This document shows positions 1,459 to 44,380 of a DNA stretch of 46,052 bases, one piece after another (positions within the stretch are counted from its first letter, which is position 1; the number at the start of each line of letters is the position of its first letter). The position numbers and the translations under genes are program-made. The notes under the pieces were generated by a model. The model saw nothing but the letters and a program-made list of their open reading frames with translations. It ran no database searches and had not been told where the DNA came from. The DNA comes from a virus (Duplodnaviria; Heunggongvirae; Uroviricota; Caudoviricetes): IMG/VR virus record IMGVR_UViG_2671180885_000005. The stretch is one strand, 5' to 3'.

Positions 1459-2622
1459 TTACACATCATTAGTACCTTCCTTATTTTTTGACTGGGACAA
1501 ATTTGGGACCGATGGGTTCAGGATCAAGTCTATTTGCCGTGCGTGTTCGGTAAGGTGATTAGGTGCAAGGTGAGCATATCGACGAACCATTTCGATAGAC
1601 TCCCAGCCTCCCATTTCCTGTAACACTGACAACGGGACTCCGGCTTGAACCAGCCAACTTGCCCAGGTGTGTCTCAAGTCGTGAAATCTGAAATCATCAA
1701 TACCAGCCCGTCTCAGCGCCGCTTTCCAGGCTGTGTTTGCGTCATACCGCATCTTCCTTACTGTTGGCGCTTTCGTTCCGTCTGGTTTGGTACAGCTTTC
1801 CTTGTACACAAATACCCAACGGTGATGATTCCCGATTTGTTTTTTCAATACGCGACATGCAGTATCATTCAGCGCAACGCCAATTGCGCGGTTTGATTTA
1901 CTCTCTTCCGGGTTTATCCATGCCACCCGGCGCTGCATATCTATTTGTTGCCATTCAAGGTTGATGATGTTCGAGCGTCTTAAGCCTGTTGCCAGTGCAA
2001 ATTCAACAACAGACTTTAATGGCTCCGGACATTCATCAATCAGCCTTTGTGCTTCATGGGGCTCCAGCCAGCGGATCCGTTTATTCTTTGGTTGAGGCAC
2101 TTTAATAATTGGTGCCTTATCCAGCATTTTCCATTCACGCTCTGCGGCTCTTAGTAGGGCCTTTATAAATGAAAGATGCGTAGCCTTCGTTGCAACGGAC
2201 GCTGGTTTTGGCGTGTATTCTGGAACAGGTTTCCCTTTTTTTCTGCATGCTTCTGCCCTGAGTTTCCAGTTTTCCTCATGACGCCGGTTCGTCATTTTCT
2301 GCATTGCTGAATAAATTTTTGATTCAGTAATGTCTCTTAGTTGCATTCCTGCGAAATGTTGAAGCCAGAATCCGATCCGGCTTTTGTCATCGTCAAGTGA
2401 TTTTTTATGTGCTTTCTCTTCAAGCCACCTGACACACGCTTCCTCGAACGTTATATCAGGTATTTCACCAAGTTTGCTGACCCGCCATGCTTCAGCCTTT
2501 AGCTTGTCATGGAGTTCTGTCGCCTGCCTTTTGTCCTTTGTTCCAAGAGACTGTTTAAATCTTTTACCGTTCGGCAATGTGAAACTGGCGTACCATATTT
2601 CACCTCTGCGGAAGAGTGACAT
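1459..2622 (-). CDS. int: tyrosine-type site-specific integrase
   Basis: 387-aa ORF next to attL, transcribed toward the tRNA; C-terminal catalytic region [39 protein letters not shown] (R..HxxR..Y pattern). Confidence 0.9.
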
Positions 2623-25560: not shown

Positions 25561-25731
25561 ATGTTTGTCAAACCTGTTAAAGGGCGGTCAGTTCCTGACC
25601 CTGCCCGCGGCGACCTTTTGCCCGCCGAAGGGCGAAAGGTTGACGAGAACAACTACTGGCTGCGCCGTGAAGTAGCGGGTGATATCCGGCGCGTGAATAA
25701 AAAGGTGAACACCGATGACGATAAGCTTTAA
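25561..25731 (+). CDS. small ORF (56 aa), possibly DUF2635-like; absent from the ORF track because under 60 aa
   Basis: ATG at 25561 preceded by GAGGA; translates to MFVKPVKGRSVPDPARGDLLPAEGRKVDENNYWLRREVAGDIRRVNKKVNTDDDKL; stop at 25729..25731; sits upstream of the sheath gene as in Mu-like tail modules. Confidence 0.45.
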   Translation: MFVKPVKGRSVPDPARGDLLPAEGRKVDENNYWLRREVAGDIRRVNKKVNTDDDKL

Positions 25732-27211
25732 CACCATTCCGTCGAATACGCTGGTTCCGCTGTTTTATGCGGAAATGGATAATCAGGCGGCGAATACTGC
25801 ACAGGACAGCGGAGCATCGCTGCTGATTGGTCATGCCAATAACGGTGCAGAGATTGTTGCCAACAGTCTGGTACTGATGCCGTCGGCAGACTATGCACGC
25901 CAGATTTGTGGTGCGGGAAGTCAGCTGGCGCGTATGGTCGAGGCTTATCGCCAGACCGACCCGTTTGGCGAGCTATATGTGATTGCCGTTCCTGAATCCA
26001 CGGGCGCGGCGGCAACGGTTACGCTGACGGTGACCGGCGCGGCAACCGAAACCGGCACGGTGAATGTTTATGTGGGACGTACCCGCGTGCAGGCACCGGT
26101 GACCAACGGCGATAACGTCGCGACGATTGCCAGCAGTATCAAAGATGCCATTAATGCCGTTCCGGCCCTGCCGTTTACGGCCTCATCTTCGGCAGGCGTG
26201 GTCACGCTGACCGCGCGTCATAAGGGGCTTTGCGGGAATGAAATTCCTGTCAGCCTCAATTACTACGGCTTTGGTGGGGGCGAAGTGCTGCCAGCGGGCG
26301 TACAGATTGCTGTGGCGACGGGGAGCGCCGGAACGGGCGCTCCTGTTCTCACCGGCGCGGTGGCTGCAATGGCGGATGAGCCGTTTGATTATATCGGCCT
26401 GCCGTTCAACGACACGGCCTCCGTTAACACGCTGGTGACCGAGATGAACGATACCAGCGGTCGCTGGAGCTATGCGCGTCAGCTGTATGGTCATGTGTAT
26501 ACGGCAAAGATCGGCACGCTGTCAGAACTGGTGACCGCAGGTGACCAGTTTAACCAGCAGCACATTACCCTAGCGGGGTACGAAAAAGAGACCCAGACGC
26601 CTGCCGACGAGCTGGCGGCAAGCCGTACCGCCCGCGCAGCGGTGTTTATCCGCAACGATCCGGCACGTCCCACGCAGACCGGTGAGCTGGTGGGTATGCT
26701 GCCTGCGCCGAAGGGGAAACGGTTCACGATGACCGAACAACAGACCCTGCTGTCTCATGGCGTGGCAACGGCGTATGTCGAAAGCGGGGTACTACGCATT
26801 CAGCGTGATGTCACCACGTACAGGAAAAACGCTTACGGGGTTGCGGATAACAGTTACCTAGACAGTGAGACGCTGCATACCAGCGCGTATGTACTGCGCA
26901 AACTGAAATCCGTCATTACCAGTAAGTACGGGCGTCACAAGCTTGCCAGTGACGGTACCCGCTTTGGTCCCGGTCAGGCGATTGTCACCCCGGCGGTGAT
27001 CAAAGGGGAACTGCTGGCAACCTACCGTCAGCTTGAGCGTGCGGGGATCGTGGAAAACTACGAACTGTTTAAGCAGTACCTGGTTGTGGAGCGTGATGCC
27101 AGCGATCCGAACCGCCTGAACACGCTGTTCCCGCCTGACTATGTTAACCAGCTGCGTGTCTTTGCCGTGGTTAATCAGTTCCGTCTTCAGTATTCAGAGG
27201 AGTCTGCATAA
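25715..27211 (+). CDS. contractile tail sheath protein (Mu gpL-like)
   Basis: 498-aa ORF; size, position upstream of the tube gene and N-terminus MTISFNTIPSNTLVPLFYAEMD are typical of Mu-like sheath proteins. Confidence 0.85.
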   Translation: MTISFNTIPSNTLVPLFYAEMDNQAANTAQDSGASLLIGHANNGAEIVANSLVLMPSADYARQICGAGSQLARMVEAYRQTDPFGELYVIAVPESTGAAATVTLTVTGAATETGTVNVYVGRTRVQAPVTNGDNVATIASSIKDAINAVPALPFTASSSAGVVTLTARHKGLCGNEIPVSLNYYGFGGGEVLPAGVQIAVATGSAGTGAPVLTGAVAAMADEPFDYIGLPFNDTASVNTLVTEMNDTSGRWSYARQLYGHVYTAKIGTLSELVTAGDQFNQQHITLAGYEKETQTPADELAASRTARAAVFIRNDPARPTQTGELVGMLPAPKGKRFTMTEQQTLLSHGVATAYVESGVLRIQRDVTTYRKNAYGVADNSYLDSETLHTSAYVLRKLKSVITSKYGRHKLASDGTRFGPGQAIVTPAVIKGELLATYRQLERAGIVENYELFKQYLVVERDASDPNRLNTLFPPDYVNQLRVFAVVNQFRLQYSEESA

Positions 27212-27567
27212 TGGCCCGTATCGGGGGAACCTGTTATTTCAAAATTGACGGTCAGCAGCTATCGCTGACCGGCGGCATTGAGGTGCCCATGAACAAAACG
27301 GTTAACGATGACATCATCGGCCTGGACGGTTCAGTGGACCGCAAGGAAACTCACCGTGCGCCTTATGTCAAAGGGACCTTCAAGGTGCCGAAGAATTTTC
27401 CGGTAAGCAAAATCACCTCGTCTGATGAGATGACCATCACTGCCGAGCTGGCGAACGGTCAGGTCTATGTACTGTCGTCTGCCTGGCTGCACGGCGAAGC
27501 GAACCATAATGCCGAAGAAGGCACGGTTGATCTTGAGTTCCACGGTGAAGAAGGGGATTACCAGTAA
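27211..27567 (+). CDS. tail tube protein
   Basis: 118-aa ORF directly after the sheath gene (TAATG overlap). Confidence 0.75.
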   Translation: MARIGGTCYFKIDGQQLSLTGGIEVPMNKTVNDDIIGLDGSVDRKETHRAPYVKGTFKVPKNFPVSKITSSDEMTITAELANGQVYVLSSAWLHGEANHNAEEGTVDLEFHGEEGDYQ

Positions 27568-27836
27568 TGAAAGAGCTTGAGTTAAAGAAACCGATTACTG
27601 CTCATGGCGAGACACTCTCCGTACTGGAGTTTGATGAACCCACCGGGAAGGATGTCCGCGAGCTGGGGTATCCCTACCAGATGAATCAGGATGAGTCAGT
27701 CAGACTTCTGGCGCATGTGGTGTCGAAATACATTGTGCGGCTGGCGAAAGTGCCGCAAAGCTCTGTCGACCAGATGTCTCCGGCAGACCTGAATGCAGCG
27801 GCGTGGCTTGTGGCCGGTTTTTTCCTCCAGGCCTGA
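27567..27836 (+). CDS. tail assembly chaperone (short form)
   Basis: 89-aa ORF upstream of tape measure; contains slippery heptamer T TTT TTC at 27818..27824 in the zero frame. Confidence 0.65.
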   Translation: MKELELKKPITAHGETLSVLEFDEPTGKDVRELGYPYQMNQDESVRLLAHVVSKYIVRLAKVPQSSVDQMSPADLNAAAWLVAGFFLQA

Positions 27837-27991
27837 CGGCTGAATACCTCACTGATCGCTTCTTTGACTGCGCCAGCTACTGGCGCATTAATCCTTTCGA
27901 ATTGCTGAATATGCCGATCAGTGAAATTCCCTTGCTGGTCAGTCAGGCAAACAGGATAGAGCAGGAGAAACGCACACATGGCGGAATTTGA
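27567..27991 (+). other. predicted -1 frameshift product of the tail assembly chaperone
   Basis: A -1 slip at T TTT TTC (27818..27824) enters the frame of ORF 27803..27991, which runs to the tape-measure start, the arrangement known from lambda G/GT. Confidence 0.5.
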
Positions 27992-29813
27992 GCTTAAGGC
28001 GTTGATCACCGGTGTCGACAGGCTTTCTCCCGCGCTGTCGAAAATGCAAAAGAAAATCCGGGGATTTAAACGCCAGGCGGAAGAAGCGTCACAGGGTGGG
28101 CTGGCGCTTGGTGGCGGACTGGCAGCGGGTCTGACGCTTTCCCTGAAATCTTATGCCGATCAGGAAAACGCCGCCACCGGGCTGAAAGTCGCCATGATGG
28201 ATGCGAACGGCGAGGTTGGAAAGAGCTTTCAGGACATCAATAAACTGGCTATTGGCCTGGGTAACCAGCTACCCGGTACAACGGCTGATTTCCAGAACAT
28301 GATGCAGATGCTGGTGCGTCAGGGGATCCCGGCAGAAAACATTCTTGGCGGTGTGGGTAAAGCGACAGCTTATCTTGCGGTACAACTGAAAAAAACACCG
28401 GAAGCGGCTGCTGAGTTTGCTGCAAAGATGCAGGATGCTACCGGAACGGCGTCAGAAGACATGATGGGGCTGTTCGACACTATCCAGAAGGCGTTTTATC
28501 TGGGTGTTGACGATACCAACATGTTGTCCTTCTTCACTAAAACCAGCTCTGTTCTGAAGATGGTGAACAAGGACGGTCTTCAGGCTGCACAGAGCCTTGC
28601 CCCCATCAGCGTCATGATGGATCAGATGGGGATGAACGGGGAGTCGGCAGGTAACGCCCTGCGAAAAGTTATCCAGTCCGGATTAAGCGTTAAGAAAATC
28701 AGGGACGTCAATAAAATCATGGCCCGCCAGAAACTCGGGGTACAGCTCGATTTTACTGACGGCAAAGGAAGTTTTGGCGGTCTTGATAACATGTTCAGGC
28801 AACTGGCAAAGCTGCGAAAACTGACCGACGTTAAGCGAACAGGTGTACTTAAGGCAATATTTGGTGATGATGCCGAAACCCTTCAGGTGGTCAATGCACT
28901 AATCGATAAAGGAAAGGATGGCTACGATCAGATCCAGCAGAAGATGAATAAACAGGCCAGCCTGAATAAACGTGTTCAGGCCCAGCTTGGTACGCTGTCC
29001 AACCTGTGGGAGGCAATGACGGGGACCGCAACTAACGGCCTTGCGGCTATTGGCGGCGCATTTTCTGGTGACGCCAAAAATATCACGCAATGGCTGGGGG
29101 AGTTAGGGGAAAAATTCACGAAGTTTGCGGATGAAAATCCCCGGGTTATTCGCGGCGTCGTCGGGCTTGCTGCCGGTCTTGCGATTCTGAAACTGGGATT
29201 GATGGGCGTTGGCGGTGCCATCAGTATTGTCAGCAGGATCATGTCGATGACGCCGATTGGAATGATTGCGACGGCGATAGCCCTGGCTGCGGGATTAATT
29301 ATCACTAACTGGGATGTTGTCGGACCTTATTTCAAGAAGCTCTGGGAAACCATTGGTCCTTATTTTGAGGCTGGCTGGGAACTTCTGAAGAAGGTTTTTG
29401 CCTGGTCGCCGCTGGGGATGGTAATCAATAACTGGGGACCGGTTGTTAAGTGGTTTCAGGATATGTGGGACAAACTGAAGCCAATTATTGAGTGGTTTAC
29501 CGACAGTTCCGGTGACACGGTCGATGCCATTAACTCTGCGCAGTGGGGCGCGGGTGCTTATGATGCTTATGGGACGGGAATACCGGCACGGGGATACACA
29601 CCTTATCAGGCGGTAGATCCGGCTCAGTCAAACAACGCCTCCGGTGCCACAGGCCCGAATCCCTTCATGATTAACAAAGCTTCTGCGCCAAAAGTTGATG
29701 GTGAGATCAAGGTCTCTTTTGTGAATTCGCCTCCGGGTATGCGGGTTATGGAAACGCGATCCAGCGGTTTTGATGTCAGCCATGATGTTGGCTATACGCG
29801 CTTTGGCAGGTAA
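27978..29813 (+). CDS. tail tape measure protein
   Basis: 611-aa ORF after the chaperone pair, AGGAGA SD; Gly/Ala-rich hydrophobic central region typical of tape measure proteins. Confidence 0.85.
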   Translation: MAEFELKALITGVDRLSPALSKMQKKIRGFKRQAEEASQGGLALGGGLAAGLTLSLKSYADQENAATGLKVAMMDANGEVGKSFQDINKLAIGLGNQLPGTTADFQNMMQMLVRQGIPAENILGGVGKATAYLAVQLKKTPEAAAEFAAKMQDATGTASEDMMGLFDTIQKAFYLGVDDTNMLSFFTKTSSVLKMVNKDGLQAAQSLAPISVMMDQMGMNGESAGNALRKVIQSGLSVKKIRDVNKIMARQKLGVQLDFTDGKGSFGGLDNMFRQLAKLRKLTDVKRTGVLKAIFGDDAETLQVVNALIDKGKDGYDQIQQKMNKQASLNKRVQAQLGTLSNLWEAMTGTATNGLAAIGGAFSGDAKNITQWLGELGEKFTKFADENPRVIRGVVGLAAGLAILKLGLMGVGGAISIVSRIMSMTPIGMIATAIALAAGLIITNWDVVGPYFKKLWETIGPYFEAGWELLKKVFAWSPLGMVINNWGPVVKWFQDMWDKLKPIIEWFTDSSGDTVDAINSAQWGAGAYDAYGTGIPARGYTPYQAVDPAQSNNASGATGPNPFMINKASAPKVDGEIKVSFVNSPPGMRVMETRSSGFDVSHDVGYTRFGR

Positions 29814-35624: not shown

Positions 35625-36229
35625 TGACCACAAATGAAATCACCTTAGACGAAAACGGATTTGCCACTGAGGCGGGATTTATTACCGTTTACAACTACAA
35701 TGGCGAACCCCATGAATATATTGGTTCAACTGTTGAATATCTGCCGGTTGGCGTTGGCGTTCCAGCTGATTCCTGCGTTGATGCGCCAGGCAGCAAAAGA
35801 GACGGTTTCGCAATCTGCCGCAATGCTGATTTAACCGGTTGGGAATACGTTGCAGATCATCGCGGCGAAACCGTTTACAGCACGGCTACTGGCAAACCTG
35901 TGACTGTTTCACAATTGGGAGAATACCCGGAAGGAACCACCACCAAACCGCCATCTACTCCATACGACAAATGGGATGGACAAAAATGGGTTGCCGACGA
36001 CGACGAGAAACACGCGGCGGATGTGGCAGCGGCAGAGCAACAGAGAAAAAATCTGCTGAACTCCGCAAATTCAAAAATCAGTCTGTGGCAAACGGAACTA
36101 CAGTTAGGCATTATCAGCGATGAAGATAAAGCAAGTCTGATTTCCTGGATTGGCTACATTAAGGCGGTGACGGCAACAGATACCAGCACCGCGCCGGATG
36201 TCATCTGGCCTGAACTGCCGGAGGCGTAG
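35624..36229 (+). CDS. tail fibre assembly protein (Tfa)
   Basis: 201-aa ORF directly after the tail fibre gene; Tfa-like termini. Confidence 0.75.
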   Translation: MTTNEITLDENGFATEAGFITVYNYNGEPHEYIGSTVEYLPVGVGVPADSCVDAPGSKRDGFAICRNADLTGWEYVADHRGETVYSTATGKPVTVSQLGEYPEGTTTKPPSTPYDKWDGQKWVADDDEKHAADVAAAEQQRKNLLNSANSKISLWQTELQLGIISDEDKASLISWIGYIKAVTATDTSTAPDVIWPELPEA

Positions 36230-41570: not shown

Positions 41571-42407
41571 TCACTGCAGTTGCGTGAGCAGGGCTTCCGC
41601 CATCACCCACAGTGCCCGGTTAAGTTTCACGTCCCCGTCGATACCGCGAACGGCACGGGTATGTGACCGTCCTCCTTTGGCATTACGGCCACTGAGCCCG
41701 CCCTTAATCAGGTTCTCCTGAATACGCTGGTACGTGGTCCACAGGTCATTGCTCTCATCCTGCCAGCGGCGAGGGGAGAGGATCTGCGATTCAGTCACCG
41801 GCTGGTGGTCTTCACCAAAGCGGTATGTGAGGGCGGCTTTTGCCAGTGCCTGCTGTGCCGGGGGTGGCAACAGCAACGACTGCATGGCATCCCGTTTCTC
41901 CTCCACCCGGTCAAAAATCCCCAGCACCTCATACGCGCCTTCAATCACCTGACTTACCACGTCCCCCTTGTGTGGCACCCGCACCTCGCCAAACGACTCA
42001 CCGCAGACGAGCCCGTTCTGACAAACCGCACGAAATAAACCCGGCAACATCTGGTACGAACTGGTGCCATCATGGGAGTTGAGCAGGATAATTTCTGGTA
42101 CCTGTTTACCGGTAATCTGCCCCTCCCGACGAAGGCGTAGCATGTGTTTTGTGTGCTCGCGTCGACCCGGGTCGCGTACCCGGGTCTGACAGGCAAAGAA
42201 CGGCTGGAAGCCTTCGCGCTGCAGGCTGTCCAGCAGGGATATGGTGGGTATATAGGTATAACGCTCACTACGGGATGCGTGTTTGTCCTCACTGAATACA
42301 CTGGGCACCACGCGAAACAGCTCTTCGCGGGTTAACGGGCGGTCGCGACGGATAAGATTTGCTGCGCCAAAGCGCGAAGCCAGACGGGTCATAAGCAGAC
42401 TCCTCAT
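41571..42407 (-). CDS. DUF932-family protein (YafZ/YfjQ-like)
   Basis: 278-aa ORF in the conserved position after the GTPase. Confidence 0.75.
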   Translation of the reverse strand: MRSLLMTRLASRFGAANLIRRDRPLTREELFRVVPSVFSEDKHASRSERYTYIPTISLLDSLQREGFQPFFACQTRVRDPGRREHTKHMLRLRREGQITGKQVPEIILLNSHDGTSSYQMLPGLFRAVCQNGLVCGESFGEVRVPHKGDVVSQVIEGAYEVLGIFDRVEEKRDAMQSLLLPPPAQQALAKAALTYRFGEDHQPVTESQILSPRRWQDESNDLWTTYQRIQENLIKGGLSGRNAKGGRSHTRAVRGIDGDVKLNRALWVMAEALLTQLQ

Positions 42408-42483
42408 AACGGGAAAACAAATAAAAGGGATCCCCGTCGCATCGGCGACAGGGGCAGGGAAGTAACAGGGATGGGTTAAATAC

Positions 42484-43347
42484 TCAGAAGAAGAAATCCC
42501 AGACGGCGCGGGCCACTGACACCACCGTGGTGCGCACGGCCTGAATGACAGCCCGTACCGGGGCGGGTATCAGGGGAAAGGCACTGATGCTATCGAGTAC
42601 GGCCCCGACGGTTTCACCAAAATCGCTACGAGCCTGTTCCCGGACTACCGTCGTGCGAAAGGAAGACTGGAGTTGCGACACCACCGGGCTGGTGGCCTCA
42701 CGTGGCAGGCACTTAATCATTCGCTCGGCCATCACCCGCAGTCCCCACTGAAGACGGACCGACACGGCACACACCGGATGTACGGGCTGGAACAGCTCAT
42801 GCAGCAGACAGATTTTACGGCTGATATTCTGCTTCTGCGCCGTGGACAACGGTCCCCCACCGCTGGTGGGTTCGGCCTTATCCGACTGGCTGATAACAAA
42901 CAGCACCTTATGCCGGTATACCTCTCCAATCACCTGATGATAAAAATGTTCATCCACCGCCAGCGCCCGGTCATCGGCCTTAATCAGCCACAGTACCAGG
43001 TCGAGGCGAGGAAGCTGTTCGCGGTACAGCGCAGCATACTCGGTATCGCGAGCACCACTTTCGCCCACGCCGGGCAGGTCCACCAGCGTCATATAGCGGT
43101 CGCCGACTTGCAGGCGAAAGCGCAGTGGCTCACGGGTACATGCAGCCACATCGCTGACCGGTGATATATCTCCGGCAAACAGGGCATTGCACAGACTGCT
43201 CTTCCCAACACCGGTTTTACCCATAATGCCGATCACTGGCTCGTAGCGGGTTAACTGATTTATCTGCTGCAATATACGTTCAGACACCCACTGTGGCAGA
43301 CCAGCGAGCGATTGCTGAAACGGCTTCAATCCTTCAGAATTGTTCAT
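42484..43347 (-). CDS. GTPase (YkfA/YfjP family)
   Basis: ATG at 43347 after GAGGAG; P-loop GKTGVGKSS and DLPG motif. Confidence 0.8.
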   Translation of the reverse strand: MNNSEGLKPFQQSLAGLPQWVSERILQQINQLTRYEPVIGIMGKTGVGKSSLCNALFAGDISPVSDVAACTREPLRFRLQVGDRYMTLVDLPGVGESGARDTEYAALYREQLPRLDLVLWLIKADDRALAVDEHFYHQVIGEVYRHKVLFVISQSDKAEPTSGGGPLSTAQKQNISRKICLLHELFQPVHPVCAVSVRLQWGLRVMAERMIKCLPREATSPVVSQLQSSFRTTVVREQARSDFGETVGAVLDSISAFPLIPAPVRAVIQAVRTTVVSVARAVWDFFF

Positions 43348-43453
43348 TACTACTCCTCTGAAAAATAATACAAAAACGGCAGAATCGTGAGATTCCACCG
43401 TTAATCTGGTATGTTCAAAGGGATGATATATATCTGAAAATTATTAACTTGAT

Positions 43454-44380
43454 CTACTTTTTGTCTTTTTTACGTGATGAAACAGCCTGCTGCCAAGCAT
43501 GCTTCATTTTCTGAATAAAGAAATATTTTTCTTCAACTCCAGTGTCCCAACTATCCATGCATGCAATGATCATCTGTATTCTCATTGCAGGGTTATATGG
43601 TTTTAAATAAAAGGGGATCATATTTTTATTTCTCAGATACTCCCAGCAATAGATAGCTTGCTTTTCATCTTTTTTATCTAGCCAGTCATAATCAGTAAGA
43701 AATGTATTATATTGCTCTAGCCATTTATCATGCAACTTACGAAAATAGGAAATTTTCTGACTTAAACTTACAGGAGCTAAATCAATAAACCTCATCAAAG
43801 TACAAATGCGTTCTTGTTCGGATGTTGTATTCGGGCTGTAGTTGTCGGGATCTGCGCCAGATGTTAAATAAAATCTACGCGAGTATTTTTCAGGTATATC
43901 TCTATTTTTTTCTTTATTGCTAGGGGAGATTCCCACCTGCATTTCGGCTTGTACTTCATCAAGTGAGAAATTTTTAATTTCATCAATGTTTATAAATTCA
44001 AAAAAGGATGCAGGAGTTGAGTTCGGGTTGTAAATATTATCTTGTGCAAAGATATTCACGCTCGAGGAGGTTTCAGGACTGATTCTGTTGTTATATATAT
44101 ACATTAAGGCAAACCACGATCCTCTATCAGAACCTTTGAAGCAATCGAACTTCTCTTTGTCAATGATTTTGTAATGGAACTGTTTTTTCAAGTAAGTACG
44201 CGCACTTTGTATTGCTTCATTATTGAATAGGAATTTAGTGTTCAATATATGATTAATGAGTTTTTGAAATTCCTCAGGCGTGTCGAAATTACTCGCCTGC
44301 TTAATGTAATCTTCGTTGTAATACAGACTCAGAACGTAAAGGGAAAAGAACTCCTCTCTCACTTCGTCATACCTAAGCAT
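43454..44380 (-). CDS. hypothetical AT-rich protein (308 aa) heading the GTPase operon
   Basis: Long ORF, visibly AT-rich; no family recognised; occupies the slot where CP4-57 carries rnlAB. Confidence 0.55.
   Translation of the reverse strand: MLRYDEVREEFFSLYVLSLYYNEDYIKQASNFDTPEEFQKLINHILNTKFLFNNEAIQSARTYLKKQFHYKIIDKEKFDCFKGSDRGSWFALMYIYNNRISPETSSSVNIFAQDNIYNPNSTPASFFEFINIDEIKNFSLDEVQAEMQVGISPSNKEKNRDIPEKYSRRFYLTSGADPDNYSPNTTSEQERICTLMRFIDLAPVSLSQKISYFRKLHDKWLEQYNTFLTDYDWLDKKDEKQAIYCWEYLRNKNMIPFYLKPYNPAMRIQMIIACMDSWDTGVEEKYFFIQKMKHAWQQAVSSRKKDKK

Follow-up and report, generated by a model that had tools for sequence, protein, structure and literature searches.

The prophage described here has, between its tail tube gene and its tape measure gene, an 89-codon open reading frame that stops 141 nt short of the latter. 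The locus raises the question of how, if at all, this gap is translated: as a C-terminal extension of the upstream product through a programmed -1 ribosomal frameshift, as the original prediction proposed, through slippage of RNA polymerase, from a start codon of its own, or not at all. The window, by which we mean the whole 46,052-nucleotide stretch analysed, derives from an SfV-type Escherichia coli prophage with an HK97-like head and a Mu-like contractile tail; about 1100 out of 5426 complete E. coli genomes carry the element, as do the reference phages SfV, SfI and SfII. From comparison of sequences we put the probability that the tail assembly chaperone gene of this prophage carries a programmed -1 ribosomal frameshift at roughly 0.87. 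The relevant features are, in order:

25715-27211, plus strand, tail sheath gene of a contractile, Mu L-like tail (Pfam PF04984, PF17482 and PF17481)
27211-27567, plus strand, tail tube protein gene, Mu M-type (Pfam PF10618, E = 3.3e-33; database annotations), adjoining the chaperone gene upstream
27567-27836, plus strand, tail assembly chaperone gene, P2 E-like/lambda G-like, zero-frame product of 89 aa (PF10109)
27818-27824, plus strand, putative slippery heptamer T TTT TTC in zero-frame phase, with UUU in the P site and UUC in the A site, both read by tRNA-Phe
27824-27991, plus strand, predicted -1 frame extension (E'-like) of 55 codons plus stop, entered only via a shift at the heptamer; PHROG 32181
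27963-27967, plus strand, Shine-Dalgarno sequence AGGAG of the tape measure gene, within the extension coding sequence, with the ATG 10 nt on
27978-29813, plus strand, tape measure protein gene (Pfam PF10145 PhageMin_Tail, E = 1.3e-26)

The zero-frame product, which ends in ...VAGFFLQA, matches Pfam PF10109 Phage_TAC_7 (E = 1.9e-16, 60.3 bits against a cut-off of 25), with residues 4-86 aligned to positions 2-78 of the 79 in the profile. This is the only Pfam match of the reading frame, which PGAP labels 'phage tail assembly protein', and its ATG overlaps the stop codon of the tube gene as TAATG. The neighbouring tail module is Mu-type, with Pfam matches for a PF10618 tube protein, DNA_circ_N and a gpP-like hub; in database records the sheath gene is annotated as 'similar to phage Mu GpL', and notes on the neighbours read 'Mup39, L', 'Mup40, M' and 'Mup42'. 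The profile match and the position between Mu-type tube and tape measure genes bear out the earlier assignment of a tail assembly chaperone.

Position 27819 is a codon start of this gene and the zero-frame reading is GGT TTT TTC, so that the heptamer is in phase as had been proposed. It is followed by 9 nt and then the TGA (27834-27836); the 12 nt to the stop given earlier is correct as a count to the end of the reading frame. The -1 frame stays open over 27695-27991 and overlaps the first 14 nt of the tape measure gene (ATG at 27978), again as predicted, and it is the only one of the frames that is open throughout the 141-nt gap. The +1/-2 frame is open at 27793-27843 only and closes 7 nt beyond the chaperone stop, which excludes a Mu-type -2 shift at this site. 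Read from the slip site, the -1 frame encodes 55 residues (PPGLTAEY...THGGI), and the predicted fusion (27567-27824 joined to 27824-27991) is 141 aa long. Its junction would read ...VAGFF-PPGLTAEY..., the junction peptide being ...AGFFPPGLTAEY..., ...AAAWLVAGFFPPGLTAEYLTDR, and the tryptic peptide predicted to span it is VPQSSVDQMSPADLNAAAWLVAGFFPPGLTAEYLTDR.

In the proposed mechanism the majority of ribosomes would translate 27567-27836 and terminate to give the 89-aa chaperone, and a minority would slip back by one base at T TTT TTC with tRNA-Phe on UUU in the P site and on UUC in the A site. The slipped tRNAs would re-pair to UUU UUU and the -1 frame would be read to 27991, giving the 141-aa fusion. 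By analogy with lambda gpG/gpGT and P2 E/E+E', the shared N-terminal part would coat the tape measure protein and the frameshift-only C-terminal part would recruit the tail tube protein; a fixed low ratio of the two products would be needed for tail assembly, and neither would be expected in the virion. The mechanism is a known one, a textbook conserved recoding event, and biologically it holds nothing unexpected.

An in-phase heptamer is by itself a common pattern. Nine of 195 mechanical open reading frames in the window show it (at least 60 aa long, heptamer no more than 100 nt from the stop, -1 frame open for at least 120 nt beyond the stop), and these are mostly spurious and overlap real genes; the bare pattern does not discriminate and we dropped it as evidence. 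It is context and conservation, not the pattern alone, that set 27818-27824 above chance. Phe-Phe dipeptides occur seven times in the structural genes of the prophage, and 27818-27824 is the only one in the T TTT TTY form.

The first alternative to a recoding signal is that there is no functional extension, the heptamer being a pair of conserved Phe-Phe codons and the gap an untranslated spacer with one frame open by chance. The abundance of in-phase heptamers with long -1 frames would agree with this, as would the conservation of FF at the protein level and the low efficiency of the bare motif, but the gap has a clear coding signature, and in the -1 frame only. Between the window and phage EPP-1, 28 of the 44 differences in the gap fall at third positions of the -1 frame, which accounts for 21 synonymous codon changes compared with three or four in the other frames, and other phage pairs show the same -1-frame-only bias. 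The encoded peptide carries a motif, A..W[RK].NP, that is conserved across relatives, with its A, W, N and P residues invariant across clades of about 30-40% identity, and it matches PHROG 32181 (E = 4.7e-40), which PHROGs labels 'unknown function'. In seven of seven phages the -1 frame ends 7-13 nt past the tape measure start (7-10 nt in six diverged phages, 13 nt in the window). Together with the invariant wobble base described below, these features make an untranslated spacer extremely improbable.

In all six diverged phages (EPP-1, AH07, SfIV, phiP27, ST64B and YeP1) an in-phase heptamer, either T TTT TTC or T TTT TTT, occupies the column of the alignment in which the window has its own, and the fused products of the phages are 138-142 aa long and can be aligned without internal gaps. 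A scan of viral contigs returned near-identical copies only, and the wider diversity comes from a one-genome-per-species scan that yielded 34 full-length loci. The same arrangement with an in-phase heptamer is found in 33 of these 34, in many genera and including Derxia and a Methylococcales MAG; all 15 lineages below 70% nucleotide identity retain the heptamer. In 34 of 34 distinct contexts the wobble base before Phe-Phe is T and the first Phe codon is TTT, even as the preceding codon changes among GGT, AAT, CGT, AGT and GTT (residue G, N, R, S or V); in the prophage as a whole, GGT makes up 0.33 of Gly codons and TTT 0.65 of Phe codons. Among IMG/VR copies 118 of 120 keep the heptamer, as a run of six T, and in about 2-4% of near-identical prophage copies GGG replaces GGT and breaks the perfect heptamer. 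One Logan contig, SRR10963010_560131, has an inserted T that makes the run T7. The conserved FF residues by themselves constrain part of the heptamer. That heptamer, phase, extension and its end point are all kept in diverged relatives agrees with the earlier description of a conserved chaperone frameshift site.

The extension could also be an independent 62-aa gene, translated without recoding from a GTG at 27803, which precedes the first -1 codon by 21 nt. A reading frame of this length is annotated in Escherichia phage vB_EcoM-689R6 (ON470584) and in older NCBI records, and the 62-aa protein has been deposited as 'hypothetical protein' on 259 contigs and forms PHROG 32181; it is, however, absent from the current PGAP annotation. 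The stretch before the GTG, agacctgaatgcagcggc, holds no Shine-Dalgarno sequence. The -1 frame has no conserved start codon, and five of the seven phages (AH07, SfIV, phiP27, ST64B and YeP1) lack any ATG, GTG or TTG in it before the conserved motif; the frame often opens just a few codons before the heptamer. Conservation of the synonymous positions of the heptamer is likewise something that an independent gene would not require. We rejected an independent start for the -1 reading frame on the missing start codons and the lack of a Shine-Dalgarno sequence at 27803, and consider it very improbable.

A shift at the heptamer might instead be decided at transcription, with RNA polymerase adding an extra U on the T6 run so that the same 141-aa protein is made. 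The site is a pure homopolymer, T6 in the window, T7 in the clade of SfIV, phiP27, ST64B and YeP1, and T8 in L125. UUUUUUU is depleted in all three frames, for which Sharma et al. (PMC4066793) hold transcriptional slippage partly responsible. A weak hairpin with the T-run at 27804-27825 resembles a terminator, although the number of such structures is within chance (two found, 1.4 expected) and the hairpin upstream of the T-run is not conserved in the T7 clade. For efficient transcriptional slippage in bacteria, about 8-9 or more A or T in a row are generally required, and the T6 run of the window is short by this measure. In 33 of 34 contexts the heptamer ends in C or T, which fits the ribosomal H_HH.U_UU.Y hierarchy, with the conserved Phe also constraining this base. 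The homologous site of P2 and the analogous, non-homopolymeric site of lambda are both described as ribosomal in PMC3091744 and PMC5009743. For the window we regard transcriptional slippage as unlikely. The T7 and T8 runs of the other clades leave it less clearly excluded there. A conserved wobble T makes the T-run longer as well, and does not discriminate between the two kinds of slippage; at a T6 homopolymer these are not separable by sequence alone.

Among characterized systems, frameshifting in the tail assembly chaperone is conserved in long-tailed phages (PMC3091744 and PMC5009743), and P2 E/E+E' comes nearest to the window site, ahead of lambda G/GT and Mu gp41. P2 shifts by -1 at TTTTTTG, a site that is also annotated in RefSeq NC_001895; PMC3091744, which describes it, citing Christie 2002 and Xu 2004, reports no stimulatory hairpin, and none is conserved here either. 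P2 E shares positions 2-78 of the 79 in PF10109 with the reading frame of the window, the N-terminal parts being homologous, and in both the slip site lies at the same end of the profile (position 78) with residues G-F-[FL], in closely similar contexts, GTC GGT TTT TTG (P2) and GCC GGT TTT TTC (window). The products are 91 and 142 aa in P2 and 89 and 141 aa here. In both the chaperone gene is directly upstream of the tape measure gene, E+E' ending 8 nt into gene T and the predicted fusion 14 nt into the tape measure gene. Differences lie in the seventh base (G in P2, C or T in SfV-type sites), in the distance from heptamer to zero-frame stop (18 nt versus 9 nt), and in the operon, which is FI/FII in P2 in contrast to the Mu-type tail module here. 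The extensions also differ. P2 E+E' matches PF10109 at 1.4e-12 and PF06528 (GpE') at 1.2e-21, whereas three variants of the window extension have no PF06528 match even at E ≤ 10, and NCBIfam gave no match; we therefore rejected membership of the P2 GpE' family for the window extension, which belongs to PHROG 32181. In an hhalign comparison the fused alignment and P2 E+E' run colinearly for 119 columns, but the match is weak, with E = 0.0027 and a probability of 11%. A sequence search of the PDB gave no meaningful match, the best being a COP9 subunit at E = 0.93.

The original prediction likened the site to lambda G/GT, and this holds for the slot between the major tail or tube gene and the tape measure gene and for the logic of the system, with P2 being the nearer relative through its N-terminal homology. 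In lambda, two assembly chaperones are made at a fixed ratio, one short and one extended by frameshifting, and neither is present in the virion (PMC5009743); the slip site is G GGA AAG, with a measured ratio of about 30:1 (Levin 1993; Xu 2004, 2013, 2014, via PMC5009743). The likeness is one of logic only, as no sequence homology with the window chaperone is detectable, the lambda heptamer is different and not a homopolymer, and the tail of lambda, a siphovirus, is non-contractile. Mu has similar flanking genes (sheath L, tube M, DNA circularisation protein N and hub P) and a chaperone gene in the same slot, but Mu gp41, at 144 aa, matches PF23746 Gp41_Mu (9.1e-35) and PF10109 only marginally, whereas the window reading frame matches PF10109 alone. 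Mu gp41 uses a -2 frameshift, according to PMC5009743 and PMC2628397, and its extension is in a different frame from that of the window. The window site falls into the same X XXY YYZ class of tandem slippage as dnaX, IS911 and IS3, and U_UU.U_UU.C is used by some IS elements (PMC4066793). These systems, however, rely on an upstream Shine-Dalgarno-like element, a downstream hairpin or pseudoknot, or both, and neither is conserved here.

Downstream folds of 60 nt are no better than those of shuffled sequences in the window, phiP27, YeP1 and P2 (z from -0.01 to 0.70). A 100-nt fold in the window scores z = -3.75, with a 10-bp long-range stem (27849-27858/27915-27924) and a hairpin at 27869-27887. 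Across 15 relatives just 63% of cells are paired in the long-range stem, and no covariation is seen in the hairpin, RNAalifold giving no compensatory pairs. A compensatory stem seen by eye in EPP-1 was dropped, being in a different register. Nothing resembling a Shine-Dalgarno-like stimulator recurs in the 24 nt upstream of the site among the 34 contexts. As has been reported for P2, the site seems to operate with neither a conserved RNA structure downstream nor a Shine-Dalgarno-like stimulator upstream.

E. coli is prone to frameshifting at both U_UU.U_UU.C and U_UU.U_UU.U, and H_HH.U_UU.Y is among the best motif classes there, above those with UUA or UUG (PMC4066793). According to Table S3 of that work, UUUUUUC in a reporter shifts at 0.12% alone, at 0.89% with the IS911 stimulator and at 7.6% with the IS3 pseudoknot. 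Given 0.12% for the bare motif and the lack of a conserved stimulator, efficiency at the SfV-type site may be very low unless there is a context effect that has not been recognised. That the site nevertheless reaches percent-level efficiency, from a bare motif of about 0.1% and with no conserved RNA structure or Shine-Dalgarno-like element, is a possibility that we hold to be doubtful, in a judgement that takes in the reading of the extension as well. If it were so, a stimulator of an unrecognised kind would be common to P2 and SfV-type sites; examples would be the conserved and hydrophobic peptide (...[ILMV]-[ILV]-x-x-F-F) nascent at the site, queued ribosomes, or a coupling with translation of the tape measure gene. 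The SfV-type sites form a natural series of stimulator-less UUUUUUY sites for the study of context effects on frameshift efficiency.

The main value of the locus is for annotation. The SfI and SfIV genome papers were found to make no mention of a frameshift, and a search of full-text literature for SfV or TTTTTTC with a tail assembly frameshift found none, the tables of Christie 2002 and Xu 2004 lying outside its coverage. In every record examined the 141-nt gap is either empty or filled with a stand-alone 'hypothetical protein'. Recognition of the extension as part of a chaperone frameshift product would give PHROG 32181 a predicted function, and the rule for annotation is a PF10109 gene, followed by T TTT TTY, followed by a -1 extension that ends at the tape measure start. 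Finally, the most conserved motif of the extension, A..W[RK].NP, may track the Mu-type tube protein, with the N-terminal part of the chaperone and the tape measure protein being swapped as one cassette.

The window is an SfV-type E. coli prophage: over the 1.2 kb surrounding the slip site, identity to phages SfV, SfI and SfII and to Escherichia phages vB_EcoM-689R6 and SKA5 is 98–100%, and 1104 of 5426 complete E. coli genomes also match this stretch. The prophage encodes a terminase, a portal and an HK97-type capsid; SfV integrates into a threonine tRNA gene, and the arrangement of tRNA-Thr and integrase in the window fits this. The relevant features are as follows.

1369–1444, tRNA-Thr (CGU), adjoining the prophage
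1459–2622, minus strand, phage integrase, directly after tRNA-Thr
25715–27211, tail sheath, in the Mu-like tail module
27211–27567, tail tube (PF10618)
27567–27836, plus strand, tail assembly chaperone (PF10109, 'Phage tail assembly chaperone proteins, E, or 41 or 14', E=1.9e-16)
27978–29813, tape measure (PF10145)
After the tape measure, DNA_circ_N protein, in the Mu-like tail module
After the DNA_circ_N protein, gpP-like hub, in the Mu-like tail module

The tail fibre assembly gene ends at 36229. Farther on (41571–44380, minus strand) are a DUF932 protein and a GTPase (MMR_HSR1), together with other ORFs that do not resemble SfV structural genes; this part may come from a neighbouring but different island or prophage remnant.

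The sequence TTTTTTC at 27818–27824 lies in the chaperone ORF with a codon starting at 27819, such that GGT TTT TTC is read as the heptamer T TTT TTC. The 89-aa product ends ...VAGFFLQA, with its TGA (27834–27836) 9 nt past the heptamer. The open stretch of the -1 frame spans 27695–27991; from the slip point it encodes PPGLTAEYLTDRFFDCASYWRINPFELLNMPISEIPLLVSQANRIEQEKRTHGGI, ending 14 nt inside the tape measure gene (ATG at 27978); the +1/-2 frame closes 7 nt past the stop of the 89-aa ORF. Direct reading of the frames thus bears out the original prediction as to the position and zero-frame phase of the heptamer and the -1 frame that overlaps the tape measure start. The best-supported reading is a tandem -1 slippage of tRNA-Phe from UUU-UUC to UUU-UUU, which would give ...VAGFF-PPGL... 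and a predicted fusion protein of 141 aa; a single-tRNA slip one codon earlier would yield an identical protein. The slip pattern by itself is no better than chance: among mechanically called ORFs of at least 60 aa in the whole window, 9 of 195 have an in-phase X XXY YYZ at most 100 nt from the stop together with a -1 frame that stays open for 120 nt or more past it, and most of these nine are spurious ORFs overlying real genes. The case rests on context and conservation.

Six diverged phages share the tail module: EPP-1 and AH07 (71–73% nucleotide identity), and SfIV, phiP27, ST64B and YeP1, in which divergence puts the chaperone and tape measure genes beyond the reach of blastn. A zero-frame T TTT TTC or T TTT TTT stands at the same protein position (...FF) in all six, with a -1 frame running from the heptamer to 7–10 nt beyond the tape measure start (13 nt in the window) and fused products of 138–142 aa that align without internal gaps. 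Past the heptamer, the zero frame goes on for 3–22 codons in these phages and for as many as 27 in the genomic loci, so it is the heptamer and the -1 peptide that are conserved and not the position of the stop. A scan of one genome per species gave 38 loci, in Enterobacterales, Derxia, a Methylococcales MAG and uncultured proteobacteria; an in-phase heptamer and the conserved -1 peptide are present in 33 of the 34 that are full-length, the sole exception being an insect-symbiont MAG in which the frame is disrupted. In three loci of reduced insect-symbiont genomes (L123, L126 and L127; Ca. Pantoea bathycoeliae and Arsenophonus) the chaperone frames are disrupted and the extension peptide lies in another frame relative to the N-terminal part, consistent with decaying prophages.

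Comparison of the window with EPP-1 over the gap downstream of the chaperone ORF places 28 of 44 differences at third positions of the -1 frame, in which 21 codon changes are synonymous and 14 non-synonymous, against 3–4 synonymous changes in the other two frames; all nine pairs tested show this behaviour. In the extension, the A, W, N and P of a motif A..W[RK].NP do not vary, and an A.RI..E close to the end is conserved too. Of the seven phages compared (the six and the window), AH07, SfIV, phiP27, ST64B and YeP1 have none of ATG, GTG and TTG upstream of the conserved motif in the -1 frame; the window GTG at 27803 lacks a Shine-Dalgarno sequence, and no promoter-like site was found in the slip-site region. 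These patterns indicate -1-frame coding across the gap, with no independent start.

Codon choice at the slip site was compared in 34 distinct 63-nt contexts, including 15 lineages below 70% nucleotide identity. Although G, N, R, S and V all occur as the residue preceding Phe-Phe, the codon for that residue ends in T in 34/34 contexts, and the first Phe codon is likewise always TTT, whereas adjacent wobble positions vary freely. In the prophage's own structural genes the share of GGT among Gly codons is 33% and that of TTT among Phe codons 65%, and only one of seven FF dipeptides, that at the slip site, has the form T TTT TTY. Were the 15 lineages independent, which they are not fully, the chance probability would be of the order of 0.21^15; it would be negligible even with half of them. 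That the -1 peptide is an independent 62-aa gene is very improbable given this constraint on the heptamer, the coding signature and the scarcity of start codons. An extension without function is more improbable still, being contradicted by the substitution pattern, the conserved peptide and the invariant wobble T.

The closest case to the window site is E/E+E' of phage P2, with products of 91 and 142 aa (PMC3091744) as compared with 89 and 141 aa here. In the RefSeq P2 record E is 276 nt, and the joined E+E' CDS, with frameshift site TTTTTTG, ends 8 nt inside gene T. The PF10109 matches of P2 E and of the 89-aa window ORF span the same profile positions (2–78 of 79), which puts the two slip sites at the same domain position (GTC GGT TTT TTG in P2, GCC GGT TTT TTC in the window). 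The extension is not a member of PF06528 (P2 GpE'), and hhalign of the fused alignment with P2 E+E' gives a colinear but weak match (E=0.0027, probability 11%). As judged from these comparisons, the N-terminal part and recoding site are P2-type, while the extension, set in a Mu-type tail module, is of a family that is either separate or strongly diverged. Phage Mu is different again, its gp41 being a 144-aa PF23746 protein with a -2 shift (PMC5009743; PMC2628397). The proposal of a programmed -1 chaperone frameshift like that of lambda G/GT is thus supported at the sequence level by PF10109, the conserved slip site and -1 coding, but lambda is only analogous and P2 E/E+E' is the precise reference.

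Transcriptional slippage on the T-run would make the same protein. It is more plausible in the T7–T8 clades, but a T6 run is short for transcriptional slippage and the preference for C or T at position 7 matches the ribosomal hierarchy; we regard it as unlikely. A weak 5-bp hairpin (UGGCU-UGU-GGCCG) with the T6 run directly after it, at 27804–27825, was flagged as terminator-like; such signals are within chance (2 found, 1.4 expected), and the T7 clade does not preserve the hairpin.

For tandem ribosomal slippage, H_HH.U_UU.Y ranks with the most efficient motif classes in E. coli (Sharma et al., PMC4066793). Without a stimulator, with the IS911 stimulator and with the IS3 pseudoknot, UUUUUUC shifts at 0.12%, 0.89% and 7.6%, UUUUUUU at 0.33%, 0.45% and 10.2%, and the P2 heptamer UUUUUUG at 0.12%, 0.25% and 0.77%, respectively (PMC4066793). 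Folding of the downstream 60 nt showed no advantage over shuffles in the window, phiP27, YeP1 or P2. Over 100 nt, the window fold does stand out from shuffles (z=-3.75); here a perfect 10-bp long-range inverted repeat (UCACUGAUCG / CGAUCAGUGA, 27849–27858 with 27915–27924) encloses an 8-bp hairpin, UGCGCCAG-CUA-CUGGCGCA (27869–27887). The long-range stem is 63% paired over 15 sequences and present only in the closest relatives. The hairpin sequence, synonymous positions included, is kept in 13 of 15 relatives with no compensatory change or covariation. The hairpin overlaps the extension's conserved C-A-S-Y-W-R codons and may reflect coding constraint alone; at 45 nt 3' of the slip site, it lies farther from the heptamer than a canonical stimulator would. 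No recurring SD-like element was found upstream of the slip site among the 34 contexts. Sequence searches thus found no conserved stimulator at the SfV-type site, in agreement with P2, for which no hairpin was found (PMC3091744). The efficiency of P2-type sites is said to be 2- to 3-fold above lambda's ~1:30 (PMC5009743), far above the bare-motif reporter value, and an unrecognised context effect is therefore possible at such stimulator-less UUUUUUY sites.

By analogy with lambda, the shared N-terminal part would bind the tape measure protein and the extension the tube protein, and both products would be chaperones absent from virions (PMC5009743). Relative to SfIV-type phages, DNA identity is 96–97% over the sheath and tube genes and is lost ~30 nt past the chaperone start, at a mosaic breakpoint (query position 496, about 27595 in the window). 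The chaperone and the tape measure protein reportedly differ together, at <50% identity (PMC3851460), and their genes appear to be exchanged as one cassette; the breakpoint and this co-divergence fit the lambda-derived binding model. The extension motif is retained across clades despite the divergence.

Among 120 IMG/VR copies, 118 have GGT TTT TTC and two have GGG before FF; GGG also occurs in three of the best 80 loci (L031, L062 and L068), one with TTT for TTC too. This change breaks the perfect heptamer and is present in about 2–4% of near-identical prophage copies. In Logan contig SRR10963010_560131 (L130, 1501–1926) a T7 run hard-wires the 141-aa fusion as a single gene. Such variants may be homopolymer sequencing errors, neutral changes in decaying prophages, or tolerated weaker sites.

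The importance of the site is mainly for annotation, as a known kind of recoding that is unannotated in a widespread prophage family. The two ORFs are joined in none of the database records examined, and PGAP and RefSeq leave the 141-nt gap unannotated. The extension is PHROGs family 32181 ('unknown function', E=4.7e-40); one phage record has a GTG-started 'hypothetical protein' over the -1 ORF, and the GTG-started 62-aa protein is deposited on 259 contigs. In NZ_CP010242.1 (L001, 2237–2379) the PGAP locus tags skip from RG73_RS12045 to RG73_RS12055 across the gap, which suggests that an earlier feature, probably the 62-aa 'hypothetical protein', was later withdrawn.
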